Made by a program: the position numbers and the translations under genes. Below the pieces are notes generated by a model. The model saw nothing but the letters and a program-made list of their open reading frames with translations, searched no databases and was not told where the DNA came from. This document shows, piece after piece, positions 38,956 to 64,000 of a DNA stretch of 64,000 nt. The DNA comes from Botryllus schlosseri (Eukaryota). Position 1 is the first letter of the stretch. Every line of letters begins with the position of its first letter. The stretch lies in the NCBI GenBank assembly GCA_051294905.1, contig CM119372.1, forward strand, positions 9,054,001 through 9,118,000, read 5' to 3'.

Positions 38956-41900
38956 CCTTGCAAGATCCAGCAACAGTTAGAGATCTTGCAACCTGATCTT
39001 TAGTTCTTTTATCTGGGATCTCGAGGTCAGGATGAGCCGATCTGCATGCTCCTAAAAAGAGATATAACTAGATGAAGATGTCCACTGTCCAGTCATGGTA
39101 TATTATACATCAGACAACGAACAAGTTTCATTGATATAAGAGACTCTTGGAGGTAAAGAATTCCAATATACTATTGAATAATATATTCATATTGCAATAA
39201 TATATTCAATTGCAGCTGAATATTTTCTGCTAAAACTCATTAACAACTAGAGTAGGGGGGGGTGGGGGAATTTGAGTATATTTTCAAGTTCGAGCAGCTG
39301 TCATATTCATAAACTGCCCAATAAAAAGGTTGTTGGTTGATATTTGTTACATTGTATGGTTGAATTTTTGATTGCAAATAGTTTGAGGATTCAATCAGCT
39401 AAGAGTAGAAAAATATCGCAATTTTTTTTTTCGAAATTAGTATACTCAATTTACCCCAATTTTGTGGGAAAATTGAGTATACTGTCCAAATAGCACTAGA
39501 AGTAAGCCTTATCCCCATGCTATACCCAAATGAGTCATTGTATGGGAAAATTGAGTATATTAACAAGTTTGTAAAAAAGAAACTGGAACAAAATCTGCTA
39601 CGGTTGGTTCAAGAGAAGCTTTTTCAGAACGAACCGCAGAACGAAATAATTCAATGGTGATGTTTTACCAACTGTTTGCATTTAAATCAAATATGAGAAC
39701 CCCTCTTCTTCCTGGAATTGGTGCTCTGACTTTTCCAATTACTTCATTGAATGAAATATTCTCCATATCAATGTTGCAGGGATAGAAAAATATACATCCT
39801 GTTGGTTGCCGGCTCTGTTCGTACCGAACAAAATTAATCTCCAGTGTTTCTCCTCCACCCATCACATTTTCTACTTGACCCAGAAACTTTCTCTGTCCAT
39901 ATTGAATAACAAGCCAGTCTAACTCTTTGATCTCCTCTTTCCTAACCTTCTCTACTCCCACCAAGTCCTCTACTCCTCTCAAGTCTGTCTCGGAACTGCT
40001 TGTAGATTGTGTGGCTTCTTCCTCCTCGTCAACATGACTGGCCACAACTTTATTGGTTTTTCCACCTCTGCGCTTAAGCTTTCTTACTGTCTCCTCCTCT
40101 TGAAGTCTGGCCATGCTCTCTTCCGATGTCAGCACCTCACCAGTTTTGGCCTGAACACGTCTCCGTTTCGCATTGTGATTATCTAAAGCAGTTCTGGTTT
40201 CTTTTGAAATTGCTGGTGACACTACTCTCGTAATAGCCTGTGTCAAATTTCTCACCACATCGCTTTCTTCGACAATTTCATGCTGAACACGATCAACTGC
40301 CTTGTTTTTTACTATGTCAGCATTGACTGGGTAAAGTCCACTTCCTTTATAACAGCTTTTTCCTACCTTAATTTCCTTTACTGCCTGTTGCAATTGCTGT
40401 GTTGTGTATTTAGGAGTTCGCTTTTTCTTATAATTCCTGGGCATATCTTTTGACTGTTTTAACAATTGTATTCTATAATATTTAACAAAACCTGCATAAC
40501 AAGATTCAATTGAGTATTTGCAACCCCTCTGATAATCGTGGGACAGAGAAATTCCGCATTCAATGGTATACTCAATTTACCCGCCACTTATGGCATACTA
40601 TAACCAAAATACCCCAAAAAATTATTTTTCAAATTAAAACTTACTCACACCACCATTGACAATATCCATAGCTATACCCTGTAGTATGATCAACTATCAC
40701 TACTTGAGTGGTATATCGTTTTGCAACAACCATTTTTATGTCACCTGTTAAGAAGTTGAAAAACAGTGTTAAAAATGAAAAAATGCGTCACAAATTTTCA
40801 ATTGCATGTGTAAGCTATAATTTTCCTGCAAGGAAATTGGTTATTAGTCTTATCTATAGCTTGCATAGTGAGCTACTGAATGAAGGCAGAACTGACAAAT
40901 TTGAAGCAGAAATGTTGGACCAGCGGAAGTTTTAGTCAAATGTACTCAAATTTCCCCACCTACTCAAGTTCCCCCACCCCCCCCCCCCTACTAAAGTAGG
41001 TAACTTAGCAAATCACGACATCAGTATTCGTATTACCAAATATGACGTCAAACGATTAAAATGTTGAAAAATCGAGGCTAGGGCTCAACTTTTTTTTACG
41101 TTGATTACGTTTAATTCCCGTCAATAACCGTTGATAACTTACGTCTAATAGTCTTTTCAAGTGTCACTCTTGTTGTTTTGACCCTTAAGACTGGTTTTTC
41201 CTACTTTCTTTACAGCTATGCGGGTCATCATATTTCCGACAGTTTCCGGCAATTGTACACCCCGGATTCCCATTAAAGCGGCTACCTGTAAAACATTATA
41301 TTAGTGGTACACAATACAGATGGTACTGCCTTGCATGAATGGTTTGCACCAGAATTAACAATAACATTTATGGGCATTCTAGATAAAACCATCCACACCA
41401 TAAATTTCATGGTCACGCTAATCAAAGGCTTGGTTGACTTTGCGATTTCGCAATAAATTACATTGGCAATTCAATTTTTGATAATAGAACTAATTTCGAA
41501 AAGGACCCCTGCTGTGTCTGAAAATGATTCCTTGGTGTCGGCGGACACCCCTGATTTAGACTGTCAATCGCTTTGTTCGAATGAGAAACAAAAACATACC
41601 AGTTCAGACTTTGCCGTTGTTCAAAGGTGTTCCAGCTGTGACAAGGTTTCACAGGGATCTTCAATTATATCTTCCAGTAAAATTGGGGCACTCGATTGAG
41701 GTCTTTTGGAGTCATTGTCGATATGATGTCTGAGGAAATCCATCATCTGGTTTTTCTGCAACTTTATGTCTTTGATGCTCAAGCTAAAAAGGATTCGATT
41801 ACAAGAAAGTTGGATTGACCATCATATGTGATAAACTTACCATTACTTTATGACAGGCCACATTGTTGATGGTCAAAATTTTGTAGTTCAACGATGATTT

Positions 41901-42830: not shown

Positions 42831-43544
42831 AGACCTATATTCATTTACAGCAAATCCTTAAAGTAAGGTTGGAGTAAGTTGATATCCAGGAAATGTGCTC
42901 ATGATTAGCCGCACAAGTTCTATAGTTTATTAGTTGGTTTGATATGAATCAAAGAATTATATTCAGATATAGCCGCCAAGTTATGATATGGACACCATAT
43001 TACCAGAAAGACTAGACTAGTTCTATGAAGTTATATCGTATTACCTCAAGACAAGTCCTTAACTATGATTATATAAGAAGCATAGCCTATATATAAATTA
43101 CCTTGCACAGAGCAGTTTTCGGTATTCTTCTATGCTTGGATTAGCCTCAATTAACTGCGATTTCCCTGAACGCAACTAAAACCAAAACGACAACGATATC
43201 TGCACTACAAGCCGCCATTATCAGAGCGCTTCTGTCTTTTGTCTGACGATTTGAAACCTGCGCGCCGAAAACCAGAGTGAAGTTATCACACAAAATTCCA
43301 ACTGCTGTCATCTGGGCCGAATACTTGTATGAAATTTCCAAAGCGGAAAAAAGATATGACCTACCATTACTATATTTAACGAACTACCTCCAGGAGGATG
43401 AGTTATTACCCTTTCTGGACTCAATAGTGGTATAAATTACATACTAATATGAGATAGCTTATTTCCAGATGCATAAGTACCAGTAAATGACCACCAAAAT
43501 TTCTGTGATGTGATCGCATTCGCAACAATACACCATTGCTTCGA

Positions 43545-44440
43545 TCAATTTGACCCTGTCAATATATTTTATCGGTAGGGTAACTTATACTTTGTTCCGG
43601 AAGATAAGTTATACCTTTTCTGAATCTAATAGTCATCTATTTTACACCCACACTAGAGACAACTCATTTCGAGGTACACAAGTTACTCTAAAATACACCT
43701 AAATATGTCGTATTATCGCTACAGAGGCCAATTCACATTCGTTTCACGCATTTTGTCCATGCCAATATATGTTATCGGTAGGGTAACTTAAACTTTGTTC
43801 CGGGAGATGAATTATACCTTTTCTGAATCTAATAGTCATCTATTTTACACCCACACTAGAGACAACTCATTTCGAGGTACACAAGTTACTCTAAAATCCA
43901 CCTAAATATGTCGTATTATCGCCACAAAGGCCAATTAACATTCGTTTCACGCAACTCGACCATGCCAATATATGTTATCGGTAGGGTAACTTAAACTTTG
44001 TTCCGGGAGATGACTTATACCTTTTCTGAATCTGATAGTCATCTATTTTACACCCAAACTAGATCGAACTTATTTGAAGGTACACAGGTAACCATAAAAT
44101 CCAACTGAATACGTCGGATCTGATCGCTACAAAGGGCAATGCACAATCGCTTCACGCAATTTGACTATGTGAATATATCCTATCGGTAGGGTGACTTATA
44201 CTTTATTCCGAAAGATAAGTTATACCTATTCTGAATCTAGTACCCATATATTTTACGCCCAGACTGCGGACAAGTCATTTCGAGGTACACAACTCTTTGC
44301 AAAATTCAACTAAATAAGTGTGATATGATCGCATATTGAGACAAACCACAATTGCTTCACACGATTTGACCATGTCAATATATTTTATCGGTAGAGTAAC
44401 TTATACCTTGTTCCGGAAGATAAGTTATACCTTTACTGAA
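43545..44440 (+). repeat. ~204-bp tandem repeat (about 4.5 units), with inverted copies at ~45979-46260
   Basis: Anchor atcggtag at 43571, 43774, 43977, 44182, 44387; each unit has the dyad taacttat...ataagtta or a variant. Confidence 0.9.
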
Positions 44441-45010
44441 CTTTCATCGAGGCGAGTCCCGAAAGGCTGGCTTTCGAAAAGTATAGTCGATTCATATTTG
44501 AATGCCATGGTCAACCGCACAAATTTGTGCGCTGGACGAAAAAAAAATTGCGCAGTACCGTGTGATGTCACCAGGAGTATTATTGACGGAAGAGATTTTT
44601 AAAAATTTCATCGTCGACTCGAAAATAATGACGGCGAAGTGTGCCACCTGTTGCTGTTTCCACTGATATGGGAAGATCACTTTATACTCATTTCATTTTC
44701 AAAGGCAAATAGCTAAATTGCGATTATAAACTCCCTGGCTGATCACAAATTATCAAGTTGTTTGGTATCGAAGTTGAAAAGCAATTTCAAGGGTTTTTTT
44801 CTCCGGAAATTCAAAATTGACGGACTCCAATTCGAAATGAAATGTTTGGTAAAGCAGACCGACGGAATGAGCTGCGGCGTTTGCGTTTGCTTGGCTGCCA
44901 ACGCTCTGTGCAAGGGGATATTGCCACCGAGATTACCAGATATGATGCGTAGTAGGATCGAAATCATCTTTTTCGTCTTTGCTAATTCAACACAGTCTCC
45001 ACTCCTTTAA
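44440..45010 (+). pseudogene. Ulp1/SENP (peptidase C48) SUMO-protease-like domain, 5'-truncated, two in-frame stops
   Basis: Single frame: GWLSKSIVDSYL...*...LLLFPLIWEDHFILI...*IAIINSL...KQTDGMSCGVCVC (His and Q-x5-C motifs). Confidence 0.75.
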
Positions 45011-45861
45011 TGAAGGCTGATAAGCATGGAGTCCTCACTAAAGCATATCCGGCATTGAAAAACACCCGAAATACATGCCGGTTTGATGCTGTGACAAAGT
45101 CACTATGTCACATTTTGAAGGAGACGAATTCGTTGATGTCGTTCAAACCAGGCAATAAATATGCCGAATTATCGAAGCTGGTAATGACAAGACAGGAGAT
45201 TGCTGATGATTTTTATGACTTATCGGTTAAAGAAGCATGCGATTTCTGCGATTTCGTGTATGGCGATCAGTTGGATTCTGAAGAGTTTCTATCATCTCCT
45301 TACGTATCAACTGCCTTGGAATGTTTCAACTGCGTACCATTCGTGAGCGTCGAACGTGAATCTCAATGCTGCAGCTGTGGTAATTCAATTTATAAGCAGA
45401 ATAATCGAAGAATAGATCTGATGCTCCCAGTACCCAGTTCTTGCACAAGCATACAAACTTGTTTGGACCATTTCAAAAACGAAATCGATTTCAGACATTG
45501 CAGCGTTTGCAACTCCGCCAATAACTTGGTCAGAATTAGTTTGACGTCGATCTCTAAAGTTCTAATCATTTCGTTGGCAAGACAATCAACTGGCACCTCA
45601 ACAGCCGCTACGCCAATTCAAATTGACGAAAAGATCAAAGTATTGCTTCAAGATGGTAGTACCCGTACATATACTTTGAAATCCGCAATAACTTATAAAA
45701 GTTGCAATGATGCTGGTGGTCACTGGATGTCGTACTCGTTCAATTGCCTTGGGGGGGCTATATGTTTCAACGACTATCAGGTACATTTCGTGGACGTCAA
45801 AGAAGCCTTCGATTTCATCAGAGCAAATGGGCAAATATTGTTCTACGAAGCTTTATTATAA
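45010..45861 (+). CDS. Intronless ubiquitin-specific protease (peptidase C19/USP) domain, 283 aa
   Basis: Cys box LKNTRNTC, QLDSEEFL, two CxxC pairs, VLIISLAR, His box YTLKSAITY...GGHWMSY, FND, GQILFYE; AATAAA ~40 bp after the stop. Confidence 0.8.
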   Translation: MKADKHGVLTKAYPALKNTRNTCRFDAVTKSLCHILKETNSLMSFKPGNKYAELSKLVMTRQEIADDFYDLSVKEACDFCDFVYGDQLDSEEFLSSPYVSTALECFNCVPFVSVERESQCCSCGNSIYKQNNRRIDLMLPVPSSCTSIQTCLDHFKNEIDFRHCSVCNSANNLVRISLTSISKVLIISLARQSTGTSTAATPIQIDEKIKVLLQDGSTRTYTLKSAITYKSCNDAGGHWMSYSFNCLGGAICFNDYQVHFVDVKEAFDFIRANGQILFYEALL

Positions 45862-46949
45862 AAAAATCTGTCGACCATTCTTTCATTTTCGTTGATAATA
45901 AAAATTATTGTTTTCACACCTGAACATCGGTCATCACTCATAACTATTGTTTTTATTGAAAGTATATGACGATTGCAATCAGAAAAGGTATAACTCATCT
46001 TCCGGAACAAAGTTAAACTTACCCTACCGATAAGATATGTTGATATGGTCAAATTGCATGAAACGCTGTTAATTGCCCTCTGAGGCGATCAGATCCGACA
46101 TATTTAGGTAGATTTTAGGGTTACTTGTGTACCTCGAAATAAGTTCTCTCCCGTTTGAGTGTAAAGTAGACGACTAAGAGATTCAGAAAAGGTATAACTT
46201 ATCTTCCGGAACAAAGTATAAGTTACCCTACCGATAAAATATATTGACAGGGTCAAATTGATCGAAGCAATGGTGTATTGTTGCGAATGCGATCACATCA
46301 CAGAAATTTTGGTGGACATTTACTGGTACTTATGCATCTGGAAATAAGCTATCTCATTTTGGTATGTAGTTTATACCACTATTGAATCCAGAAAAGGTAT
46401 TAACTCATCCTCCCGGAGGTAGTTCGGTAAAAATGGTAGTGGTAGGTCATATCTTTTATCCGCTTTGGAAATTTCATACAAGTATTCGGCCCAGATGACA
46501 GCAGTAAATTCCATCACACAAATCGAAGGGTATTTACTAAATGTGACATGTAACAACATGAACGGTTGTATCACCATACTGATGAAACAATGGCGTATCC
46601 GGATATGGTATCCGGATTTGGACACTGACACATGATAAAACGTATATAGAACTCTGTCCATACCAAATTTTATGCAGATCTGTCGCAGAAAACGTGTCCA
46701 AAACAGACAACTATGATTTATCGCAGGTATCATTTCAACCAAATACAATACGCAAGACGATGATACCATTTCAATTATCGCTACCGCATCAAAACGCAGA
46801 AACGGTCTGTAGTCGAAACTTGTCAAAATTATAATGGAACCGAATTTCAGCGAATTCTACCGTCAAGTTCGAGTCGAATTTCATCACTACTTTTAAGAGA
46901 CATTGCGCGAGTATCATCACCTAACCAATATTTGTCGAAAAATAGGGTC

Positions 46950-47590
46950 CGTGGACATATTAGCATGCGACACAATAGCAAGCGACACTTGAGCATGCGA
47001 CACTTGAGCATAGCGACTTTTGGTCATGGCGACTCGTGGGCATGTAGACATATCAGCATAGGGACATATTAACATGAGGACATATTAGCATGGCGACACA
47101 TAAGTATAGGGACACACGAGCATGGATACACGTGAGCATAGGGACACATCAACATGGTGACAATTTAATAAGTGCCACTTGAGCATGGTGACACATGAGC
47201 ATGCGATACATGAGCCTTGACGACACATGAGCATGGGTACACAAGAGCATGGGCACACATGCGCATATGGACACATGGGCATGGGGACATAAGAGCAAAG
47301 GTGCACATAAGCATGGGGTCATGTACGCATGCGACACTTGAGCATGCGACACGTCTACATGCAGACACTTGAGCATGCGACACGTGGATATGCAGACACT
47401 TGAGCCTGCGACACTTGAGCATGCGACCCTTGAGCATGGGACAGCTGAGCATGCGACAGTTGGGCATGCGACACTTGGGCATGCGACACTTGAGCATGGG
47501 ACACGTGGATATGCAGACAATTGAGCATGCGACACTTGAGCATGCGACACTTGAGCATGCGACACTTGAGCATGCGACACTTGGGCATGT
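46950..47590 (+). repeat. 15-bp minisatellite (gacacttgagcatgc)n, left arm
   Basis: Direct reading; reverse complement of the 50985-51840 array. Confidence 0.9.
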
Positions 47591-49401
47591 GACCATATAT
47601 TAGCGAGTAACCAATTTGATTGCCGCGCGAGGAAAGTGGCAAATTGATTGAGTGGGTGGGTGCATGGTCTGTGACTATATGGATTTGTCTGAAAAGCTCC
47701 AAAGATCGGGGTAAAGCGATAAAGGTTGTCATTGCTCCACATATATTGGAATCGTTTACACCAGACGAACTAAAAGGATATATCCTTTCGTGAGACGAAA
47801 GCAATTCCAAATTTGCAATTCGACACGGGACTTATTATTTTATTTTGTGGGTCTCAATTCATACGTGAGGTTCAAGCTGCGAGCGCTGGTCTTTTCGGCG
47901 CCTGGACAGTGGTCATATCAATGTTGAACATTTTGGTCAACATGTGGCGGTTATTTTATTTCAAGGTTTTATCGCCGTCAGTACCTACAGGGAGTCGCGT
48001 GTTGCCCGAAACGTGGGTCTCGTGGTGTGAAAATGCCAAACGCCGAAATGCCAGTCGATCTTGAAATATGGCGTTTGAGCAAGCGTTTTCCGAGTCCAAC
48101 CGTGGGCAGACTCAAGGCCTAACTCATTCCCTTTTTTACGGTTTGGCCCTGAATATATTGCGAAAATTGCGCTGTGAGCATGTTTGGTGCCTGCACTCAC
48201 AATTTCAACTGTAATATATAGCACCGTTATAAGAAGGAAATCTTGTTCTAGCGCGTAGGCTGCGTAGGCTATTCCCAAATCGGCGGACATTTTTCACCAG
48301 AAAGGTTTCCGATGGATTCGCAAAATCGGTTAATTCCTCACAACGCTCTGTTTTATCACTTAATATAAAATGTAGCATCAAGATATGTAGAACGAATGGA
48401 CGATGACTGTTACTGAAAAACCACACACAAGCTGTTGTCTACAATAGCGATCATCCAATCCTAACAAGAACCGAATCTTCAGCGATGCGGACAAATGCAA
48501 TACACGATGATAGATGACCTGGCGCTTTATGAATGTACGCAATGTTAGATCATCGCAATTCAGTTGATAAAACCGTCCGTCCCTGTGTATGGCGGAAATA
48601 GCAACAACGCGGTACCAATACCCATCATCAGTAATCCAATAAATAGCTTGTGCTTATGCCTGAAAACTTCAGGATGAAGTCTGGTGTTTCATTATTTGAA
48701 AATATTTGCTTTGGCTACTACAGTATGTCAAATAGTCATGTTATTGAGCGGTGTTATTTCGTCTATACATCCAGCGTATAATTCTAATATAATGTGTTGA
48801 CGTAATTGAAGGCAATATTAGGCAACCAACATCACACCCACACCCGCGTATGGCCAGATCGCGAGAAATTAACAAAACCGCAGACGTCTGCAAGCAGTCA
48901 TCAAGCTGTCTAATCTATCGAGTAAAGACTCGAAACCGAACAGAACAACGCTCGAAATCCTACCAACTTGGTTGACACCTCTAATCACAACGAGGTGAAG
49001 AAGTTTGGTTTATCACCCTATGGGAAGCCCAAGACCAACCAATGCACAAAAGCGCTTTTTCATGCTAATCTAATTTTTCGATTGTCCTTATTTTTGGGTC
49101 CATGTCGATGGCAACCCTGCTTATAAAGAAAATTTAATGGTATAGCTATAGCCTACCTCTGGATCTCACCGTCCAGCTAATTCAAAGACATGTACGATGC
49201 ACATATAGACTTCTATAGATGCTATATCGGTTGTTTTAGCATTGCTAGATAAAGACTGGCGAGTGCTATACATTGAAATATACTAAAAATGCATATCATC
49301 ACTACAATATACTATATATAATGTTATGTAATAGCTCTTCATACATTCCAGCAGTTAATGCACAAGTTTGATTGGGATTATACGCTGAGTAATATTGGTA
49401 A

Positions 49402-50388
49402 TAGGGATGGTGTGAACGTGAGGTTCACGTTCGCGTTCTGTGTGTGAACCTCGAAAATTTAGAGGTTCGCGTTCACAACAGAACCTTGGTAGGTTCTGCA
49501 CTGTGAACCTTTCGGTAAATTGTAATTTTCACTCCATTATAAGATCTTTGGCTCAAATTTATTGCATTTCAACTGCGGACCACTCCATGCCTGGTGCTGG
49601 CAGCATAAAAAATCAACACTAAACGAGCATGCACCATGCACCTCGACAACCTTAAACGTTTCACTTGCTTTGTTGCAAAAATTTTCTCGAAATATCCAGC
49701 TTTCCGTTTGTGAATATTTAGTGACTCTCTGCTGTGAGCTTGACCCGCAATCGATATACGTAGTCAGCGAATGATGCTTATTCAACCAATCAATTACATT
49801 GATATCGTCTTCTGATGTAAAAAATCGAACGGTCGTGCTGGGTCAATCTTGACTTCATATCTTTACTGTATCATTAAAACCAAATCCGTGCGATTTAGGT
49901 GCTTGCTACTGCAGCATAACTTGTTGTTTGTGGTATCGGTAGCTAGTATAGAAACCCGTTGTACACCCTGCTCAATATCAATGTAGCAATACTCAGACTC
50001 CGAACACATTGTCCGGTCTGGCTAAGACCGTTAAGGCGTAAGCTTATATTCCTTGGTAAGTCCTCGTCGAAATTGTTGGCAAAGCGACGGAATGTATTGA
50101 TTTCATGCAATTATCATATCCTTTGATTACCGCGGTTGATACATTTAGCGACGTTTAAAACGCTGATATGTACTTCAGCATTGTGGCATTATGTGGACCG
50201 AATCTACGCTATAGGTATCGTGTACCTGTACAACATTAATATAGGGCATAGGCTATCACTTCATTGAAAGAAAGGGTTGGAATTAGCAATATGACGTCAC
50301 GAGGTTCACGTTCGTGTTCACACAGAACCTTTCAAAAAGGTTCACGTTCACACGAACCTGAACCTTTCAGAGGTTCACACCATCCCTA
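49402..50388. mobile_element. hAT (Ac-type) MITE nested in the MULE-type element
   Basis: TIR TAGGGATGGTGTGAAC / GTTCACACCATCCCTA; GGTTCAC/GAACC subterminal repeats; TSD approximately tggtaata/aggtaata. Confidence 0.75.
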
Positions 50389-50984
50389 AGGTAATATTGC
50401 AATTTATACTTGACTATCAGCCGATACTTTGATGCCAGTAAAATTGTGTCGAAAGTTACTCTTCACAGAGACAATCTGTAAAGGTCTATGACCATCAGAA
50501 CTCAGGATATATCATTTTCTGACGGGTATAATAAATCCATGGTTTCGACGCTATTCTGCAAAAATTCTCTTTCTCCGTTTTCAGAAGAGGCCTTTGGCAA
50601 ACATCAGCGACTGTTTATAATATTTTAGTGGCATATTCAGGGGTCTATCAGAGCCGCAAGAAGGTTAGCCGGGTTAGGAATCACTGGTTTAGAATCTAAT
50701 TTCAGAACAAACGCTATATCCAGTATCGTGGCGTCCCCGCATCGACAACAAACTTCATTCTACATGGGTATGCACATGCACACTGCACAGTGCACAGTCC
50801 TGTGATGTGCAAGATTAAAATATACAGACTGCAATTTCCACTGATGTCATGTTTCACTAACCGCAGTCGAAGCTAGCCGTGAAATCGAGTTATTTTATTT
50901 ATTAATAAAAGCATGTTGTGGTGCTTATCACAGCGTGGTTTTTTGCACCACGTGACAACAAATTCCATCACTAACACAAGCTAA

Positions 50985-51840
50985 CTTGCTCAAGTGACAC
51001 ATGCTCAAGTGACGCATGCTAAAATGTGACACATGCTAAAATGTGGCACGCTCAAGTGTCGCATATGCTCAAGTGTCGCATGCTCAATTGTGGCATGCTC
51101 AATTGTGGCATTTCCAAGTGACGCATGCTCAAGTGTCGCATGCTCAAGTGTCGCATGCCCAAGTGTCGCATGCCCAAGTGTGGCATGCCCAAGTGTCGCA
51201 TGCCCAAGTGTCGCATGCCCAAGTGTCGCATGCCCAAGTATCGCATGCCCAAGTGTCGCATGCCCAAGTGTCGCATGCTCAAGTGTCTGATGCTCAAGTG
51301 ACGCATGCCCATGCCCAAGTGTCGCATGCCCAAGTGTCGCATGCCCAAGTGTCGCATGCCCATGTGTCGCATGCCCAAGTGTCGCATGCCCAAGTGTCGC
51401 ATGCCCAAGTGTCGCATGCCCAAGTGTCGCATGCTCAAGTGTCTGATGCCCAAGTGTCGTATGCGCAAGTGTCCGCATGCTCATTTGTCACCATGCTAAT
51501 ATGTCACCATGCTAATATGTCACCATGCGCAAGTGTTAACATGCTGAAGTGTCCCAATCGTTATGTGCCCCCATGCTCACGTGTTACCATGCCCATATGT
51601 AACCATGCTCATTAGTCCCCACGCTAATGTGTAACCATGCTCAAGTGTCGCACGCTAAACTGTCCCCATGCCCATGTGTCCCCTTGCTCATATTTCAACA
51701 TGCTCATATGTCCCCATGCGCATGTGTCCCCATGCTCATGTGTCCCTATGCTCATGTGTTACCATGCTAATGTGTCCCCATGCTGTAGCGTCGCATGCTC
51801 AACTGTCGTTTTGCATTGTGTCGCATGCTCATATGTCGGG
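50985..51840 (-). repeat. 15-bp minisatellite (gcatgcycaagtgtc)n, right arm
   Basis: Direct reading; explains the AQVSH/HATLG repeat ORFs. Confidence 0.9.
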
Positions 51841-51845
51841 CAACC

Positions 51846-53280
51846 GAAAAATAGCACATGGCCGTCTGATTTAAGATGTCACCAATTCAATTCTCGATAC
51901 GGCATCAAAATGTAGACACGTTCACGAGTCGAAGCTTGTCCTGAAGCATGTTCGAACTAAGTTTCATCGAATTTTACCGTCTTGTTCCGGTTGAAATTTG
52001 AAAGTAGTTTCAAAAGAATCCGTGCAATTATCACCTGGCCAACGTCTTTCGCAAAATTACACGTATAGCTCTCGGATTAAAGACGCCGATATTTCAATCA
52101 TAGACAAGTGCTCCACTTCTAACCACGTTCAGGAGTCGAGTCTTGTCCCAAAGCATAATCGAACCGAGTTTTAGCCAATTCTATCGTCTAGTTCGAGTCG
52201 AATTTCATCTCTACTTTTCAGAGAAATTGCGCGAGTATCATCACTCCGCCAATGTTTGTCGAAAAATAGCACGTGGCCGTCTGATTTAAGATGTCACCAT
52301 TTCAATTCTCGATACGGCATCAAGATGTAGACACGTTCACGAGTCGAAGCTTGTCCTGAAGCATGTTCGAACTAAGTTTCATCGAATTTTACCGTCTTGT
52401 TCCGGTTAAAATTAGAGTGTAGTTTCAAAAGAATCCGTGCGATTATCACCTTGCCAGTTGCCAACGTCTTTCGCAAAATGACACGTATAGCTCTCGGATT
52501 AAAGACGCCGATATTTCAATCATAGACAAGTGCTCCACTTTTAACCACGTTCAGGAGTCGAGGCTTGTCCCAAAGCATAATCGAACCGAGTTTTAGCCAA
52601 TTCTATCGTCTAGTTCGAGTCGAATTTTATCTCTACTTTTTAGAGAAATTGCGCGAGTATCATCACCTGGCCAACGTCTTTCGCAAAATTACACGTATAG
52701 CTCTCGGATTAAAGACGCCGATATTTCTATCATAGACAAGTGCTCCACTTTTAACCACGTTCAGGAGTCGAGGCTTGTCCCAAAGCATAATCGAACCGAG
52801 TTTTAAACAATTCTACCGTCTAGTTCGAGTCGAATTTCATCTCTACTTTTCGGAGAAATTGCGCAAGTATCATCACTCCGCCAATGTTTGTCGAAAAATA
52901 GAACATGGCCGTCTGATTTAAGATGTCACCATTTCAATTATCGATACGGCATCAAAACGTAGACACGTTCACCAGTCGAAGCTTGCTCTGAATCATGTTC
53001 GAACTAAGTTTCATCGAATTTTACCGTCTTGTTCCGGTTGAAATTAAAGTGTAGTTTCAAAAGAATCCGTGCGATTATCACCTGGCCTACGTCTTTCGCA
53101 AAATTACATGTATAGCTCCAGGATAAAAGACGCCGATATTTCTATCATAGACAAGTGCTCCACTTTTAACGACGTTCAGGAGTCGAGGCTTGTCCCAAGG
53201 CATAATCGAACCGAGTTTTAGCCAATTCTACCGTCTAGTTCGAGTCGAATTTCATCTCTACTTTTCAGAAAAATTGCGGA
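51846..53280 (+). repeat. 210-bp satellite, forward orientation (~7 units mixing variants A and B); degenerate first unit at ~46765-46945
   Basis: Reverse complement of the 53800-62758 units; continues across the MULE TSD. Confidence 0.9.
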
Positions 53281-53799
53281 TCATGCACTAATTATCCTCT
53301 GGTCATCGCAGTAGAACAGATTCGAAGGGCTCTGGATGGATTGAATCTTTTTAAGATATATTACTGGCACCAAGAAGTATGCAGGCAATCCAGAGTCCAT
53401 AACAGATCTGATGAGTGAACGGTAGACACACAAAAGAGTCTTCTAGCTGGCTCCCCAACTCGCGCCATTTGTCTAGGATAGAAATATCAGCGTCTTTTAT
53501 CAGAGAGCTACACGCGTAATATTCCAAAAGACATTGTTTATCTATAAACAATTATGAACATTTGGGTCACTTGCGGCTCGCACAATAATCTTTGTAAGGT
53601 CTTTCCGCCTTTTTTACGTCCTTTTTTTTTGGTATTTGATAATGACATCGTTCTGGAGTTCGGCTCTCTCTTCCTCTGGGATTTTCAAGGCGATGTATTT
53701 ACAGCGGTATCGGCGACAAGGTGCCCAGAAAAACATCCGACACATAGAAACATGGCAGGGCCAAGACTCGAACCAGCAACAATTTCATATCCAAGTAGA

Positions 53800-56700
53800 C
53801 CCGAATTTTGACCTGAAAAAGACGGTAGAATTCGACTAAACTTAATTCTATTATGCTTCGGGACAAGCCTCGACTCCTGAATGTGATTAAAAGTGGAGCA
53901 CTTGTCTATGATAGAAATATCGGCGTCTTTAATCCGAGAGCTATACGTGTAACTTTGCGAAAGACGTTGGCCAGGTGATGATACTCGCGCAATTTCTCTG
54001 AAAAGTAGATATGAAATTCGACTCGAACTAGACGGTAGAATTGGCTAAAACTAGGTTCGATTATGCTTTGGGACAAGACTCGACTCCTGTACGTGGTTAA
54101 AAGTGGAGCACTTGTATATAATATAAATATCGGCGTCTTTAATCCGAGAGCTATACGTGTAATTTTGCGAAAGACGTTGGCCAGGTGATGATACTCGCGC
54201 AATTTCTCGGAAAAGTAGATATGAAATTCGACTCGAACTAGACGGTAGAATTGGCTAAAACTAGGTTCGATTATGCTTTGGGACCAGACTCGACTCCTGT
54301 ACGTGGTTAAAAGTGGAGCACTTGTATATAATAAAAATATCGGCGTCTTTAATCCGAGAGCTATACGTGTAATTTTGCGAAAGACGTTGGCCAGGTGATG
54401 ATACTCGCGCAATTTCTCTGAAAAGTAGAGATGAAATTCGACTCGAACTAGACGGTAGAATTGGCTAAAACTCGGTTCGATTATGCTTTGGGACAAGCCT
54501 CGACTCCTGTACGTGGTTAAAAGTGGAGCACTTGTCTATAATAGAAATATCGGCGTCTTTAATCCGAGAGCTATACGTGTAGTTTTGCGAAAGACGTTGG
54601 CCAGGTGATGATACTCGCGCAATTTCTCTGAAAAGTAGAGATGAAATTCGACTCGAACTAGACGGTAGAATTGGCTAAAACTCGGTTCGATTATGCTTTG
54701 GGACAAGCCTCGAATCCTGTACGTGGTTAAAAGTGGAGCACTTGTCTATAATAGAAATATCGCCGTCTTTAATCCGAGAGCTATACGTGTAATTTTGCGA
54801 AAGACGTTGGCCAGGTGATGATACTCGCGCTATTTCTCTGAAAAGTAGAGATGAAATTCGACTCGAACTAGACGGTAGAATTGGCGAAAACTCGGTTCGA
54901 TTATGCTTTGGGACAAGCCTCGACTCCTGCACGTGGTTAAAGGTGGAGCACTTGTCTATAATAGAAATATCGGCGTCTTTAATCCGAGAGCTATACGTGT
55001 AATTTTGCGAAAGACGTTGGCCAGGTGATGATACTCGCGCAATTTCTCTGAAAAGTAGAGATGAAATTCGACTCGAACTAGACGGTAGAATTGGCTAAAA
55101 CTCGGTTCGATTATGCTTTGGGACAAGCCTCGACTCCTGTACGTGGTTAAAAGTGGAGCACTTGTCTATAATAGAAATATCGGCGTCTTTAATCCGAGAG
55201 TTATACGTGTAATTTTGCGAAAGACGTTGGCCAGGTGATGATACTCGCGCAATTTCTCTGAAAAGTAGAGATGAAATTCGACTCGAACTAGACGGTAGAA
55301 TTGGCTAAAACTCGGTTCGATTATGCTTTGGGACAAGCCTCGAATCCTGTACGTGGTTAAAAGTGGAGCACTTGTCTATAATAGAAATATCGGCGTCTTT
55401 AATCCAAGAGCTATACGTGTAATTTTGCGAAAGACGTTGGCCAGGTGATGATACTCGCGCAATTTCTCTGAAAAGTAGAGATGAAATTCGACTCGAACTA
55501 GACTGTAGAATTGGCTAAAACTCGGTTCGATTATGCTTTGGGACAAGCCTCGACTCCTGAACGTGGTTAAAAGTGGAGCACTTGTCTATGATAGAAATAT
55601 CAGCGTCTTTAATCCGAGAGCTATACGTGTAATTTTGCGAAAGACGTTGGTCAGATGATGATACTCGCGCAATTTCTCTGAAAAGTAGAGATGAAATTCG
55701 ACTCGAACTAGACATTAGAATTGGCTAAAACTAGGTTCGATTATGCTTTGGGACAAGACTCGACTCCTGTACGTGGTTAAAAGTGGAGCACTTGTATGTA
55801 ATAGAAATATCGGCGTCTTTAATCCGAGAGCTATACGTGTAATTTTGCGAAAGACGTTGGCCAGGTGATGATACTCGCGCAATTTCTCTGAAAAGTAGAT
55901 ATGAAATTCGACACGAACTAGACGGTAGAATTGGCTAAAACTAGGTTCGATTATGCTTTGGGACAAGACTCGACTCCTGTACGTGGTTAAAAGTGGAGCA
56001 CTTGTATATAATAGAAATATCGGCGTCTTTAATCCGAGAGCTATACGTGTAATTTTGCGAAAGACGTTGGCCAGGTGATGATACTCGCGCAATTTCTCTG
56101 AAAAGTAGAGATGAAATTCGACTCGAACTAGACGGTAGAATGGGCTAAAACTCGGTTCGATTATGCTTTGGGACAAGCCTCGACTCCTGTACGTGGTTAA
56201 AAGTGGAGCACTTGTCTATAATAGAAATATCGGCGTCTTTAATCCGAGAGCTATACGTGTAGTTTTGCGAAAGACGTTGGCCAGGTGATGATACTCGCGC
56301 AATTTCTCTGAAAAGTAGAGATGAAATTCGACTCGAACTAGACGGTAGAATTGGCTAAAACTCGGTTCGATTATGCTTTGGGACAAGCCTCGAATCCTGT
56401 ACGTGGTTAAAAGTGGAGCACTTGTCTATAATAGAAATGTCGGCGTCTTTAATCCGAGAGCTATACGTGTAATTTTGCGAAAGACGTTGGCCAGGTGATG
56501 ATACTCGCGCAATTTCTCTGAAAAGTAGAGAGGAAATTCGACTCGAACTAGACGGTAGAATTGGCTAAAACTCGGTTCGATTATGCTTTGGGACAAGCCT
56601 CGAATCCTGTACGTGGTTAAAAGTGGAGCACTTGTCTATAATAGAAATATCGGCGTCTTTAATCCGAGAGTTATACGTGTAATTTTGCGAAAGACGTTGG

Positions 56701-59700
56701 CCAGGTGATGATACTCGCGCAATTTCTCTGAAAAGTAGAGATGAAATTCGACTCGAACTAGACGGTAGAATTGGCTAAAACTCGGTTCGATTATGCTTTG
56801 GGACAAGCCTCGACTCCTGAACGTGGTTAAAAGTGGAGCACTTGTCTATGATAGAAATATCAGCGTCTTTAATCCGAGAGCTATACGTGTAATTTTGCGA
56901 AAGACGTTGGTCAGATGATGATACTCGCGCAATTTCTCTGAAAAGTAGAGATGAAATTCGACTCGAACTAGACATTAGAATTGGCTAAAACTAGGTTCGA
57001 TTATGCTTTGGGACAAGACTCGACTCCTGTACGTGGTTAAAAGTGGAGCACTTGTATGTAATAGAAATATCGGCGTCTTTAATCCGAGAGCTATACGTGT
57101 AATTTTGCGAAAGACGTTGACCAGGTGATGATACTCGCGCAATTTCTCTGAAAAGTAGATATGAAATTCGACTCGAACTAGACGGTAGAATTGGCTAAAA
57201 CTAGGTTCGATTATGCTTTGGGACAAGACTCGACTCCTGTACGTGGTTAAAAGTGGAGCACTTGTATATAATAGAAATATCGGCGTCTTTAATCCGAGAG
57301 CTATACGTGTAATTTTGCGAAAGACGTTGGCCAGGTGATGATACTCGCGCAATTTCTCTGAAAAGTAGAGATGAAATTCGACTCGAACTAGACGGTAGAA
57401 TTGGCTAAAACTCAGTTCGATTATGCTTTGGGACAAGCCTCGACTCCTGTACGTGGTTAAAAGTGGAGCACTTGTATATAATAGAAATATCGGCGTCTTT
57501 AATCCGAGAGCTATACGTGTAATTTTGCGAAAGACGTTGGCCAGGTGATGATACTCGCGCAATTTCTCTGAAAAGTAGAGATGAAATTCGACTCGAACTA
57601 GACGGTAGAATTGGCTAAAACTCGGTTCGATTATGCTTTGGGACAAGCCTCGACTCCTGTACGTGGTTAAAAGTGGAGCACTTGTCTATAATAGAAATAT
57701 CGGCGTCTTTAATCCGAGAGCTATACGTGTAGTTTTGCGAAAGACGTTGGCCAGGTGATGATACTCGCGCAATTTCTCTGAAAAGTAGAGATGAAATTCG
57801 ACTCGAACTAGACGGTAGAATTGGCTAAAACTCGGTTCGATTATGCTTTGGGACAAGCCTCGAATCCTGTACGTGGTTAAAAGTGGAGCACTTGTCTATA
57901 ATAGAAATGTCGGCGTCTTTAATCCGAGAGCTATACGTGTAATTTTGCGAAAGACGTTGGCCAGGTGATGATACTCGCGCAATTTCTCTGAAAAGTAGAG
58001 AGGAAATTCGACTCGAACTAGACGGTAGAATTGGCTAAAACTCGGTTCGATTATGCTTTGGGACAAGCCTCGACTCCTGAACGTGGTTAAAAGTGGAGCA
58101 CTTGTCTATGATAGAAATATCAGCGTCTTTAATCCGAGAGCTATACGTGTAATTTTGCGAAAGACGTTGGTCAGGTGATGATACTCGCGCAATTTCTCTG
58201 AAAAGTAGAGATGAAATTCGACTCGAACTAGACGGTAGAATTGGCTAAAACTAGGTTCGATTATGCTTTGGGACAAGACTCGACTCCTGTACCTGGTTAA
58301 AAGTGGAGCACTTGTATATAATAGAAATATCGGCGTCTTTAATCCGAGAGCTATACGTGTAATTTTACGAAAGACGTTGGCCAGGTGATGATACTCGCGC
58401 TATTTCTCTGAAAAGTAGAGATGAAATTCGACTCGAACTAGACGGTAGAATTGGCGAAAACTCGGTTCGATTCTGCTTTTGGACAAGCCTCGACTCCTGC
58501 ACGTGGTTAAAGGTGGAGCACTTGTCTATAATAGAAATATCGGCGTCTTTAATCCGAGAGCTATACGTGAAATTTTGCAAAAGACGTTGGCCAGGTGATG
58601 ATACTCGCGCAATTTCTCTGAAAAGTAGAGATGAAATTCGACTCGAACTAGACGGTAGAATTGGCTAAAACTCGGTTCGATTATGCTTTGGGACAAGACT
58701 CGACTCCTGTACGTGGTTAAAATTGGAGCACTTGCCTATAATAGAAATATCGGCGTCTTTAATCCGAGAGCTATACGTGTAGTTTTGCGAAAGACGTTGG
58801 CCAGGTGATAATCGCACGGATTCTTTTGAAACTACACTCTAATTTCAACCGGAACAAGGCGGTAGAATTCGAAGAAACTTAGTTCGAACATGATTCACGA
58901 CAAGCTTCGACTCGTGTACGTGTCTACGTTTTGATGCCGTATCGATTATTTAAATGGTGACATCTTAAATCAGACGGCCATGTGCTAATTTTCGACAAGC
59001 ATTGGCGGAGTGATGATACTCGCGCAATTTCTCTGAAAAGTAGAGATGAAATTCGACTCGAACTAGACGGTAGAATTGGCTAAAACTCGGTTCGATTATG
59101 CTTTGGGACAAGACTCGACTCCTGTACGTGGTTAAAAGTGGAGCACTTGTCTATAATAGAAATATCGGCGTCTTTAATCCGAGAGCTATACGTGTAATTT
59201 TGCGAAAGACGTTGGCCAGGTGATGATACTCGCGCAATTTTTCTGAAAAGTAGAGATGAAATTCGACTCGAACTAGACGGTAGAATTGGCTAAATCTCGG
59301 TTCGATTATGCTTTGGGACAAGACTCGACTCCTGTACGTGGTTAAAAGTGGAGCACTTGTCTATAATAGAAATATCGGCGTCTTTAATCCGAGAGCTATA
59401 CGTGTAATTTTGCGAAAGACGTTGGCCATGGTGATGATACTCGCGCAATTTCTCTGAAAAGTAGAGATGAAATTCGACTCGAACTAGACGGTAGAATTGG
59501 CTAAAACTAGGTTCGATTATGCTTTGGGACAAGACTCGACTCCTGTACGTGGTTAAAAGTGGAGCACTTGTCTCTAATAGAAATATCGGCGTCTTTAATC
59601 CGAGAGCTATACGTGTAATTTTGCGAAAGACGTTAACCCGGTGATGATACTCGCGCAATTTCTCTGAAAAGTAGAGATGAAATTCGACTCGAACTAGACG

Positions 59701-62700
59701 GTAGAATTGGCTAAAACTCGGTTCGATTATGCTTTGGGACAAGACTCGACTCCTGTACGTGGTTAAAAGTGGAGCACTTGTCTATTATAGAAATATCGGC
59801 GTCTTTAATCCGAGAGCTATACGTGTAATTTTGCGAAAGACGTTAACCAGGTGATGATACTCGCGCAATTTCTCTGAAAAGTAGAGATGAAATTCGACTC
59901 GAACTAGACGGTAGAATTGGCTAAAACTCGGTTCGATTATGCTCTGGGACAAGCCTCGACTCCTGAACGTGGTTAAAAGTGGAGCACTTGTCTATGATAG
60001 AAATATCGGCGTGTTTAATCCGAGAGCTATACGTGTAACTTTGCGAAAGACGTTGGCCAGGTGATGATACTCGCGCAATTTCTCTGAAAAGTAGAGATGA
60101 AATTCGACTCGAACTAGACGGTAGAAGTGGCTAAAACTCGGTTCGGTTATGCTTTGGGACAAGCCTCGACTCCTGAACGTGGTTAAAAGTGGAGCACTTG
60201 TATATGATAGAAATATCGGCGTCTTTAATCCGAGAGCTATACGTGTAATTTTGCGAAAGACGTTGGCCAGGTGATGATACTCGCGCAATTTCTCTGAAAA
60301 GTAGAGATGAAATTCGACTCGAACTAGACGGTAGAATTGGCTAAAACTAGGTTCGATTATGCTTTGGGACAAGACTCGAATCCTGTACGTGCTTAAAAGT
60401 GGAGTACTTGTATATAATAGAAATATCGGCGTCTTTAATCCGAGAGCTATACGTGTAATTTTGCGAAAGACGTTGGCCAGGTGATGATACTCGCGCAATT
60501 TCTCTGAAAAGTAGAGATGAAATTCGACTCGAACTAGACGGTAGAATTGGCTAAAACTAGGTTCGATTATGCTTTGGGACAAGACTCGACTCCTGTACGT
60601 GGTTAAAAGTGGAGCACTTGTATATAATAGAAATATCGGCGTCTTTAATCCGAGAGCTATACGTGTAATTTTGCGAAAGACGTTGGCCAGGTGATGATAC
60701 TCGCGCAATTTCTCTGAAAAGTAGAGATGAAATTCGACTCGAACTAGACGGTAGAATTGGCTAAAACTAGGTTCGATTATGCTTTGGGACAAGACTCGAC
60801 TCCTGTACGTGGTTAAAAGTGGAGCACTTGTCTCTAATAGAAATATCGGCGTCTTTAATCCGAGAGCTATACGTGTAATTTTGCGAAAGACGTTAACCCG
60901 GTGATGATACTCGCGCAATTTCTCTGAAAAGTAGAGATGAAATTCGACTCGAACTAGACGGTAGAATTGGCTAAAACTCGGTTCGATTATGCTTTGGGAC
61001 AAGACTCGAATCCTGTACGTGGTTAAAAGTGGAGCACTTGTCTATTATAGAAATATCGGCGTCTTTAATCCGAGAGCTATACGTGTAATTTTGCGAAAGA
61101 CGTTAACCAGGTGATGATACTCGCGCAATTTCTCTGAAAAGTAGAGATGAAATTCGACTCGAACTAGACGGTAGAATTGGCTAAAACTCGGTTCGATTAT
61201 GCTCTGGGACAAGCCTCGACTCCTGAACGTGGTTAAAAGTGGAGCACTTGTCTATGATAGAAATATCGGCGTGTTTAATCCGAGAGCTATACGTGTAACT
61301 TTGCGAAAGACGTTGGCCAGGTGATGATACTCGCGCAATTTCTCTGAAAAGTAGAGATGAAATTCGACTCGAACTAGACGGTAGAAGTGGCTAAAACTCG
61401 GTTCGGTTATGCTTTGGGACAAGCCTCGACTCCTGAACGTGGTTAAAAGTGGAGCACTTGTATATGATAGAAATATCGGCGTCTTTAATCCGAGAGCTAT
61501 ACGTGTAATTTTGCGAAAGACGTTGGCCAGGTGATGATACTCGCGCAATTTCTCTGAAAAGTAGAGATGAAATTCGACTCGAACTAGACGGTAGAATTGG
61601 CTAAAACTAGGTTCGATTATGCTTTGGGACAAGACTCGAATCCTGTACGTGCTTAAAAGTGGAGTACTTGTATATAATAGAAATATCGGCGTCTTTAATC
61701 CGAGAGCTATACGTGTAATTTTGCGAAAGACGTTGGCCAGGTGATGATACTCGCGCAATTTCTCTGAAAAGTAGAGATGAAATTCGACTCGAACTAGACG
61801 GTAGAATTGGCTAAAACTAGGTTCGATTATGCTTTGGGACAAGACTCGACTCCTGTACGTGGTTAAAAGTGGAGCACTTGTATATAATAGAAATATCGGC
61901 GTCTTTAATCCGAGAGCTATACGTGTAATTTTGCGAAAGACGTTGGCCAGGTGATGATACTCGCGCAATTTCTCTGAAAAGTAGAGATGAAATTCGACTC
62001 GAACTAGACGGTAGAATTGGCTAAAACTAGGTTCGATTATGCTTTGGGACAAGCCTCGACTCCTGTACGTGGTTAAAAGTGGAGCACTTGTCTATAATAG
62101 AAATATCGGCGTCTTTAATCCGAGAGCTATACGTGTAATTTTGCGAAAGACATTGGCCAGGTGATGATACTCGCGCAATTTCTCTGAAAAGTAGAGATGA
62201 AATTCGACTCGAACTAGACGGTAGAATTGGCTAAAACTCGGTTCGATTATGCTTTGGGACAAGCCTCGAATCCTGTACGTGGTTAAAAGTGGAGCACTTG
62301 TCTATAATAGAAATATCGGCGTCTTTAATCCAAGAGCTATACGTGTAATTTTGCGAAAGACGTTGGCCATGTGATAATCGCTCGGATTCTTTTGAAACTA
62401 CACTCTAATTTCAACCGGAACAAGACGGTAGAATTCGATGAAACTTAGTTCGAACATGATTCACGACAAGCTTCGACTCGTGTACGTGTCTACGTTTTGA
62501 TGCCGTATCGATAATTTAAATGGTGACATCTTAAATCAGACGGCCATGTGCTAATTTTCGACAAACATTGGCGGAGTGATGATACTCGCGCAATTTCTCT
62601 GAAAAGTAGAGATGAAATTCGACTCGAACTAGACGGTAGAATTGGCTAAAACTCGGTTCGATTATGCTTTGGGACAAGACTCGACTCCTGTACGTGGTTA

Positions 62701-62758
62701 AAAGTGGAGCACTTGTCTATAATAGAAATATCGGCGTCTTTAATCCGAGAGCTATACG
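53800..62758 (-). repeat. 210-bp satellite array, ~42 units, opposite orientation, with a 1260-bp higher-order repeat
   Basis: Period 210 visible throughout; variant-B units at ~58805-59010 and ~62370-62580; diagnostic SNPs recur every 1260 bp. Confidence 0.95.
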
Positions 62759-64000
62759 CAGGCCGTGTTATTTTTGGCATATGCCAAAACTGCCAAAAAT
62801 AACTTATTTTTGGCATTTTTCGATTTTTATTTTCGGCAGTTTTGGCATCGTCATCTAAATAGATAGTTTCAGCCTCGAATTAGTCACAAAAACGCTTTAT
62901 TTGGGCTAGTTTGTCAAAAGACACCACAAAATGTGCAGCATCCACGTATAATCAGTGCCAACAAACAATAATAAGAAAAAACCGAACGATTTCATAGGTT
63001 AATAATATCAAACGAAACCACAAAATGTGCAGTATCCATCGGAATCGGTGCCAATAAGCCAAAAAAAAAAAAAAACCTAACAAACACGCTCAACAGCTGA
63101 TTGTTACAGCTGTCGAATAGACTTAAATCGTTTGCACTGTAACAGTGCTTCCAAGCTCAGGTCAGCTTAGTTTCTCATAAATTCATTTCTCGCCCAGCGA
63201 GTCTGAGAAATATCGGCTTCAACAGTAGCCGTTGATGGAAAGAATGTTGCCAGTCATCCACAAAAGGTTTTCAGACCTTCAAAATCTTTGGAGGGCCGAA
63301 CCGGCTTCCATACATCATGAAAAGAGATCACTTCGCCAGTGCCATCGATCTCATCGCGGAAAGAATTTTCTTCCAGATCCTTTCCCAGGAGTTTCCTGTG
63401 TTGTCTCTCAACACATTCTATTTAGTAGCCCGACTATCATTTCTCCTTCAGTCTACCGATATATTTTCGGAGGACTTTTGTCACTTCAGGTGGCTTTAAT
63501 ATTACCAACTCGCATGGAAGAGTCCTGGGAAGGTTAGCTTGTTTAAGAACATTGACGCAACAAGACTGTCTGGCAAAACGAGACTATGCAGCTCAGAAAT
63601 AGCCAGACAGTTTGTTGCGTCACAATGTTCAACTCGATCACAATGCAAAAATCGTGGTTGATTTTGGAGGTTCCAGTTCCATGAGCAGAATATAATTTAT
63701 ATTTTAATAATCAGTTCTGCGGCAGCTTCTCATTGATACCCGTTTTATCAAATTTAGCGCTCGACAAGCCGGTCAAAAATGGTCGTAAAATTGCCTTTTG
63801 ACAAATGGAAAGTATGACGTAAACCAAATGCAGTCAGCCGTTCAATCTCGCTGTGCCCACACCATTTAGGACACCATGCTTTCACCCCTAATGGGTGGGC
63901 TGGACCCAGATTAAGAAACCTGCCTTTCACAAACGCTATTCTCGCTTGTAACGCGGTCCTGTTAACAGAACACCATGAACGAAATACACTATTTGGCAGG
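62759..64000 (-). mobile_element. Decayed hAT-like transposon inserted into the satellite; runs off the window
   Basis: Terminus CAGGCCGTG with ttttggca repeats; minus-strand remnants LPRTLPCELVIL...IECVERQHRKL...SFHDVW...FCG*LATFFPSTATVEADIS...DLSLEALLQCK. Confidence 0.7.

Follow-up and report, generated by a model that had tools for sequence, protein, structure and literature searches.

A decayed foldback transposon in Botryllus schlosseri and its intact relatives, in which a likely Mutator-type transposase carries tandem Ulp1 and USP domains

The Rehavkus elements, known mostly from Repbase, are distinguished by a 9-bp target duplication, a PHD finger and a minisatellite (PMC6446971), and by foldback arms with tandem repeats (10.1101/2024.12.02.626372); they have been taken as an outgroup (PMC13359780) and lumped with the Mutator-like elements, or MULEs (10.1101/2021.09.26.461848). 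Proteases of the SUMO and ubiquitin systems have been acquired repeatedly by transposons: the deubiquitinases of Helitrons (VTD and OTU) are active enzymes, activity having been shown for the VTD domains (PMC9741609), and UCH and C48 are among the domains that Helitrons have captured (PMC11417382). Why transposons should capture such proteases is still at the proposal stage (PMC2836005, PMC9741609). The subject of this account is a 3.2-kb foldback element in a 64,000-nucleotide stretch of Botryllus schlosseri DNA ("the window": assembly GCA_051294905.1, contig CM119372.1, positions 9,054,001 to 9,118,000, forward strand). An initial annotation, made from the letters alone, had presented it as a transposase-less element whose only cargo is a SUMO protease followed by a deubiquitinase. 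It is, instead, probably best read as the broken remnant of a foldback family whose intact protein joins a PHD finger, a likely Mutator-type DDE core, an Ulp1 domain and a USP domain, and is likely to remove both SUMO and ubiquitin, on the transposase itself as well as on the chromatin to which it is bound.

The foldback element, with its 8-bp duplication and repeat-built arms, is real. Eight identical bases border it (Table 1); a paralogous empty site (L090, on G000:C4) has both flanks joined over one copy of these bases; and sequencing reads and contigs that lack the element leave out precisely 3,213 bases, its own length plus one duplication. The discrete insertion proposed at the outset is thereby upheld, and a 9-bp reading of its duplication is rejected, since the empty site has the 8 bases once. 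The inverted repeats had been put at ~530 bp and described as built from ~204-bp repeats: the complementarity of the arms (93% over the outer 413 nt, 90% over 548 nt) and their 203-205 bp units agree with this, but the arms are unequal, the left one extending for 1,140 nt.

Table 1. Features of the element and its insertion target (window positions; residue numbers are those of the intact 1,503-aa copy)
Feature	Position	Strand	Remarks
Non-autonomous foldback element, 3,205 bp	43301..46505	+	derived by deletion from the 13,013-bp copy at G000:C13:12313107-12326119
Left 8-bp target site duplication	43293..43300	+	present once at empty site L090
Right 8-bp target site duplication	46506..46513	+	
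Left inverted arm	43301..44440	+	4.4 tandem repeats (203-205 bp each; 43546-44440) inward of ~225-245 bp of terminal sequence
Right inverted arm, ~547 bp	45959..46505	-	90% complementary to left arm
Ulp1/C48 remnant, aa 1030-1218 of intact frame	44439..45002	+	abuts repeat array directly; found with family profile
USP/C19 remnant, aa 1218-1503	45003..45861	+	out of frame with Ulp1 part; Pfam UCH match
AATAAA, 36 nt past stop	45897..45902	+	common to intact copy; weak by itself
Insertion target: second foldback element, 43271 to 78944 (past window end)	43271..64000	.	210-bp repeats, perfect 9-bp duplication

The interior (44439-45951) is 96.6% identical to an intact copy elsewhere in the genome (L053:8109-9622) and matches it from residue 1030 of a 1,503-aa frame onward. 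The deletion has therefore removed the PHD finger and the core, so that the Ulp1 domain now begins where the left repeat array ends. The initial annotation was thus right to see a deletion derivative of a transposon family with an Ulp1-USP module, and wrong to take the proteases for sole, independent cargo: they are residues 1030-1503 of the transposase frame. There is very little room for doubt that residues 1-1029 have been deleted, that the remnant has decayed, that different lineages and hosts have kept the four-domain frame, and that its USP domain is under selection between active lineages (with Ulp1 a borderline case).

The decay can be read off residue by residue. The Ulp1 remnant retains His1110 (at 44678), Asn1127 (44729), Gln1169 (44855) and Cys1175 (44873) and is broken by two stops, at 44600 and 44714; a profile made from the family recognises it, while Pfam C48, the check originally proposed, finds no match in the three frames tested upstream of the USP part. 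The USP remnant retains Cys1243 (45076), His1458 (45721) and Asn1474-Asp1475 (45769-45774), and it passes the corresponding Pfam check against UCH (E 1.5e-6; 28.4 bits, cut-off 23.9). Its 283-aa open reading frame, correctly noticed as such, is the tail of the 1,503-aa frame, starting at an internal Met1221 (45010) behind the frameshift due to a 1-bp loss at 45002/45003, and its Cys box is altered at W1244, N1246 and Q1250, residues invariant in 8/8 aligned relatives. In all, 17 synonymous and 25 other codon changes separate the remnant from the intact copy, and the two stops in the Ulp1 part are counted among the latter. The AATAAA was also correctly spotted; the intact copy has it as well, it arises in 9.6% of 5,000 shuffles of the tail sequence, and it is rejected as the sign of a separate gene. 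Nothing sets the window copy apart from other dead derivatives: its protease module decays at the neutral rate, and it serves only as a marker of its family.

The family itself (A, below) has intact members. A genome search with the outer 220 bp of the element, for which the best 40 of 58 candidates were scored, gave matches that are all 90-100% identical; at 17 copies with both ends the duplication is a perfect 8 bp in 15, has one mismatch in another and is 9 bp in the last. Longer copies with a transposase frame, which the initial annotation had expected such a search to find, do exist: in a protein search of the genome the intact frame of 1,503 aa, with the USP domain at its end, was found in two copies, each 13,013 bp long and 99.992% identical (about one base difference). 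The arms of this intact element consist of 205-bp units, in 22.6 and 10.6 copies, and form inverted repeats of 2,403 nt at 95%. The two intact copies (G000:C13:12181349-12194361 and 12313107-12326119; L051-L054, L066, L071) lie in inverted orientation ~119 kb apart, the members of one 8-bp duplication bordering the inner end of one copy and the outer end of its partner, and the other flanks mismatched, which looks like a rearrangement by aberrant transposition or else an assembly error.

Twenty-seven further loci of the family were mapped, the reference excluded. Four span the whole frame (one of them without breaks), 14 have only the 3' part, one has an internal deletion, six have no coding match and two are old fragments. 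The 3'-only loci are themselves mostly ruins: stops or frameshifts interrupt 13 of them and five are without the Ulp1 Gln and Cys, while in one, L035, both proteases are intact within an open frame of 687 aa. The deletions are polar, with ~seven breakpoint classes in which the 5' end is gone and the 3' end is still there and none that does the reverse, in a count for which some family spans were not taken whole. Two near-identical copies, on C7 (L088) and C15 (L049/L091), differ from the window copy by 0.1% and 0.4% in the USP part. They share its right flank as well as its changes, so that all three represent one insertion, duplicated passively with the surrounding DNA.

Could the USP domain instead be a recent retrocopy of a host gene, as the initial annotation had itself allowed? 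In a USP search of the same genome (96 candidates, all scored) the family's own copies are 61-100% identical, two short fragments 38%, and a distant tier 21-25%. All nine distant-tier loci examined are transposon-type frames, and the three fully translated distant matches, like others examined, belong to transposon frames with repeat arrays on either side. The retrocopy is rejected because the search found no close host parent, with the proviso that such a search might overlook a spliced host gene.

The order of parts in the intact protein is PHD finger (aa 38-86), Cys/His-rich region, putative DDE core, Ulp1/C48 and USP/C19; both proteases belong to the transposase polypeptide and are not independent cargo. 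The first Met of this frame (P0001), at aa 183, comes only after the PHD finger. Their residues H1110, Q1169, C1175, C1243, H1458 and D1475 are invariant in 8/8 aligned rows, and the core residues D522, D596, C642-x-x-H645 and E856 in the 7/7 rows that cover them. Against solved structures, a four-family Ulp1 profile finds SENP1 best (E 7e-11; SENP8, 4e-4); PF02902 is matched by 2/4 family members, and the Foldseek rows for this part are Ulp1/SENP. A seven-sequence USP profile has USP36 (E 2e-27), USP46 and USP12 as its best solved matches; because the AlphaFold model of the protease part is confident only over Ulp1, its Foldseek USP rows do not identify the USP subtype. The PHD finger of family C matches those of EBS, Spp1, DIDO, PHF2 and BPTF, all readers of histone H3 trimethylated at lysine 4 (H3K4me3); its cage position is Ile in family A and Met in families B and C, the Met being presumably part of the methyl-lysine cage. 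An unnamed conserved domain of ~180 aa follows the USP domain in P0002, P0003, L118 and P0019, though not in family A or the Styela protein introduced below; its ratio of nonsynonymous to synonymous substitution rates (dN/dS) is 0.19 between families C and C2.

The core we infer to be a Mutator-type DDE transposase. Its C642-x-x-H645 may correspond to the C/D-x-x-H motif of MULE cores, and its feature neighbours in the Atlas are MULE clusters at 0.91-0.93; the top structural row of the Styela relative is the Atlas NOF-FB cluster (TM 0.40, under the tool's bar), 45% of whose members have C48 and 34% PHD. The initial annotation had named Zisupton, with MULE, CACTA and Ginger, among elements with Ulp1 domains, and as one that makes 8-bp duplications. 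Zisupton elements combine a KDZ transposase having CxC, SWIM or SAP domains with Ulp1 and an 8-bp duplication; the likeness ends with the last two, there being no KDZ, CxC, SWIM or SAP Pfam match (E up to 0.05 or 0.1) in the long frames scanned. A Zisupton parentage is rejected: the Atlas leads point to MULE, and the family appears to be the sister of the FB-NOF/Rehavkus-type elements.

How widespread is the arrangement? A core search of the genome (best 100 of 194 candidates scored) reached many families, and ~25 distant loci were examined. A tree of 18 cores splits 12 against 6 with support 100/100. In the 6-row clade the order, where complete, is DDE-Ulp1-PHD and the one copy tested has a 9-bp duplication; arm repeats at loci L105-L111 of that clade measure 154-237 bp. 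The 12-row clade contains the deep families A, B, C and D, all PHD-core-Ulp1-USP, an order seen in P0002, P0003 and L118, together with lineages E, F, G, H and P. Six loci of this clade were tested for a duplication, of which three (a single copy from B, from C and from C2) gave 8 bp and three none; the arm repeats of B, C and D are 193-205 bp long. On the evidence of these cores, the PHD-core-Ulp1-USP group appears to be the sister of the FB-NOF/Rehavkus-type elements. A quick, midpoint-rooted tree of 12 rows has USP-bearing rows on both sides of its deepest split, and the distribution suggests that the Ulp1-USP module may be ancestral and repeatedly lost. In the USP tree the branches are long, and neither a donor of the USP domain nor its co-inheritance with the core emerges.

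Beyond this genome, a core profile search of proteins gave five matches among 6,379 candidates. To their clusters belong Styela clava XP_077972705.1 (2,007 aa, annotated 'uncharacterized') and two ENA sequences, P0019 and P0025 (2,083 and 1,915 aa), in all of which the four domains are present. Three of 28 metagenome candidates have the PHD-core-Ulp1-USP order in broken form, and these three are probably one locus. Used by itself as the query, P0001 has no match among 3,988 candidate proteins; a search with an Ulp1-USP profile gave only three unrelated host USPs, P0004 matches in the USP domain only, and none of 126 candidates among viral contigs matches. The taxonomic range of the clade is to be read as a lower bound.

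The comparison of dN/dS across copies that had been suggested at the outset was run on differences fixed between two sublineages (eight copies of one against two of the other, the rest omitted). The fixed ratio is 0.18 for the core (16 synonymous, 11 nonsynonymous; p 1e-5), 0.26 for Ulp1 (4, 4; p 0.06) and 0.22 for USP (6, 5; p 0.015); allowing for a transition bias of 2.27 the three become 0.22 (p 1e-4), 0.32 (p 0.11) and 0.28 (p 0.035). Changes private to single copies, by contrast, give 1.83, 1.17 and 1.06 for core, Ulp1 and USP. Between active lineages, then, USP shows significant purifying selection and Ulp1 a borderline signal of it: taken together, these contrasts mean that the proteases are constrained in transposing lineages, less so than the core, and free to change in dead copies.

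Expression was not detected in the RNA sampled. Four RNA runs (3-13% of each run sampled; no control gene, tissues unspecified) have zero depth over L053:4998-8421 of the intact copy and ~1x or less at its USP end. Partial matches only, from the reads of three runs, fall on L053:9612-9650, behind the stop codon, probably because a piece of another transcribed repeat lies there. The window's 44056-46035 has zero depth in two more RNA runs, again with no control gene, and this is to be taken as 'not detected' rather than as silence; contigs of a run of unidentified kind cover it. Among the data sets listed as containing the sequence, none is on record as RNA.

What would such a protein do? Its DDE core would very probably bind the repeat-built arms, excise the element and insert it with an 8-bp stagger. 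There is a somewhat better than even prospect that the PHD finger reads H3K4-methylated chromatin. Both proteases are probably active on SUMO- or ubiquitin-like tags. The favoured mechanism, held with a confidence slightly short of even, is that they would act in cis, undoing a SUMO-then-ubiquitin cascade that leads to eviction and to the recruitment of heterochromatin enzymes; cis action is the most likely because the proteases are tethered to the transposase. SUMO is needed for silencing guided by PIWI-interacting RNA (piRNA) and recruits a silencing methyltransferase (10.1101/533091), and for trapped PARP1 SUMOylation is followed by ubiquitylation through RNF4 and eviction by p97 (10.1101/2021.07.16.452473): the two protease types mirror the two steps, SUMOylation first, then RNF4 ubiquitylation with p97 eviction. 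The proteases would be accessory, since some sister lineages are without them. The fullest version of this proposal is tentative: an old, undescribed, Mutator-related foldback clade with 8-bp duplications, still moving, might encode a "reader-cutter-eraser" protein, whose H3K4me3-type PHD finger steers the transposase while its paired proteases, one for SUMO and one for ubiquitin, turn back the cascade at each of its two steps and so shield the element from eviction and silencing. The anti-silencing role suggested in the initial annotation is plausible for the intact protein.

Several observations weigh against this reading. In family A the third catalytic residue of Ulp1, Asp in the 7 other rows, is replaced by Asn (Asn1127). 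The DDE label rests on a motif pattern and the Atlas leads: the core has neither a Pfam MULE match nor a PDB sequence match, and its AlphaFold model is unusable (pLDDT 44). Lineages G and H have Ulp1 and no USP in the stretches examined, and lineages E (sister to A) and F have no protease in the 9.9-kb stretches examined. The sublineage test depends on 8 changes in Ulp1 and 11 in USP, and other comparisons are less favourable: between C and C2 dN/dS is 0.15 for the core, 0.45-0.62 for Ulp1 and 0.60 for USP (p 0.01); a cruder pooling of variants shared among 18 copies gives 0.65 for USP; and two copies of family D give 0.98 for USP.

Might the proteases act in trans instead? They would then work on host silencing factors (such as SUMOylated proteins of the piRNA pathway or heterochromatin, or ubiquitylated histones) as a general module against silencing in an arms race, and not as guards of the transpososome, a rival that is unlikely yet better placed than the others. 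That the protease domains evolve faster than the core with their catalytic residues kept, and that some lineages have lost them, would suit it; so would the dependence of transposon silencing on SUMO (10.1101/533091) and the lowering of Sleeping Beauty transposition by SUMOylation of a host cofactor (10.1101/2020.06.15.145656). But the proteases share a frame with the transposase in every intact copy found, and between active lineages no positive selection (dN/dS above 1) was found. It is improbable that the proteases serve some other step (DNA repair at the excision gap, cutting of the long protein) or are weakly useful passengers. The partial relaxation of constraint and the repeated losses fit such a role, and one in repair has been proposed for the Ulp1 and OTU domains of transposons (PMC2836005); catalytic residues that are kept across families only 22-27% identical exclude pure passengers, though not the repair role.

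A rival of another kind, and an equally improbable one, is that the family is already catalogued, its domains noted, as a Rehavkus or MuDR entry in Repbase or Dfam. A PHD finger and subterminal repeats are indeed Rehavkus features, and Repbase is the main place of their description (PMC6446971, 10.1101/2024.12.02.626372); yet the Rehavkus table of PMC6446971 has 9-bp duplications in 5/6 elements, one being not given, and names no USP, and the RefSeq relative of the family is annotated merely as 'uncharacterized'. A literature search found no description of a Mutator-type transposase with both Ulp1 and USP, most subscription journals, Repbase Reports and Repbase/Dfam lying outside it. That transposase-less Ulp1-USP copies are a maintained helper cassette, supplying protease in trans, is very improbable, and a selected protease-only cassette is rejected: the 14/27 mapped loci that keep the 3' protease end and the open frame of L035 would agree with it, but 13 of those 14 loci are broken and five have lost the Ulp1 Gln and Cys, private changes are neutral, 6/27 loci are without a coding match, and the window copy and its two closest copies are one passively copied insertion.

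The element has itself landed in a foldback element, 30 bp inside the left end of the latter (Table 1). This target is 35.7 kb long, its 210-bp array spanning 53820 to ~78618; it has no match to the domains of the PHD-core-Ulp1-USP clade, and its termini resemble those of the DDE-Ulp1-PHD clade. Its empty site is apparently present in a contig of run X1, and it may show a transposon arm in the course of becoming satellite DNA. Nested here too, at ~46946-51844 of the window, is a third element; its inverted arrays are made of 15-16 bp units, and it apparently has a 9-bp duplication. Elsewhere in the window two frames, 5334-5891 and 13506-14033, match Pfam Rolling stone (E 1e-15) and are likely exons of tandem host genes; 24091-24942 (RNase H) and 35327-36886 (integrase) are fragments of long-terminal-repeat retroelements; and a 303-aa open frame at 39668-40576, on the minus strand, has no convincing Pfam match.

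To return to the preferred reading, that of a transposase with its own proteases: if it is true, an animal transposase equipped to erase the tags in two steps would directly counter SUMO and ubiquitin surveillance. The clade offers a clean test of the idea, with both proteases placed on the transposase and with natural lineages that have both, one or neither.

Where, then, does the family stand among described systems? The Ulp1-bearing Mutator elements of plants, hydra and lancelet, and Ginger1 (C-terminal Ulp1, PHD or OTU), likewise place a protease behind a DDE transposase, but have one each, and no USP, in the table of PMC2836005. Helitrons and Helentrons, with VTD, OTU, UCH and C48 cargo, share the feature of more than one deubiquitinase per transposon (PMC9741609, PMC11417382); they are, however, rolling-circle elements with other protease classes, and the available parts of these papers describe no C48-USP tandem on a cut-and-paste enzyme. 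Trichomonas XP_001314237.1 (transposase_11 with Peptidase C19) has a USP-type domain on a DNA transposase, although of another class, and Ulp1 and PHD go unmentioned in the available text (PMC2836005). Long terminal inverted repeats (548 nt at 90% in the window copy, 2,403 nt at 95% in the intact one) are what a MULE should have, and 8 bp falls within the 8-11 bp range of MULE duplications (PMC6446971). The closest likeness is to Rehavkus/FB-NOF: a single long open reading frame, a PHD finger, long arms with subterminal tandem repeats and a length of ~10-13 kb. The differences are an N-terminal PHD finger, a USP domain after Ulp1 and a duplication of 8 bp (in A, B, C and C2) rather than 9; since the 9-bp feature was looked for and is absent, the family is not filed as Rehavkus, though it is built like that group. 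The same genome holds a separate clade (100/100) whose elements have the DDE-Ulp1-PHD order and a 9-bp duplication.

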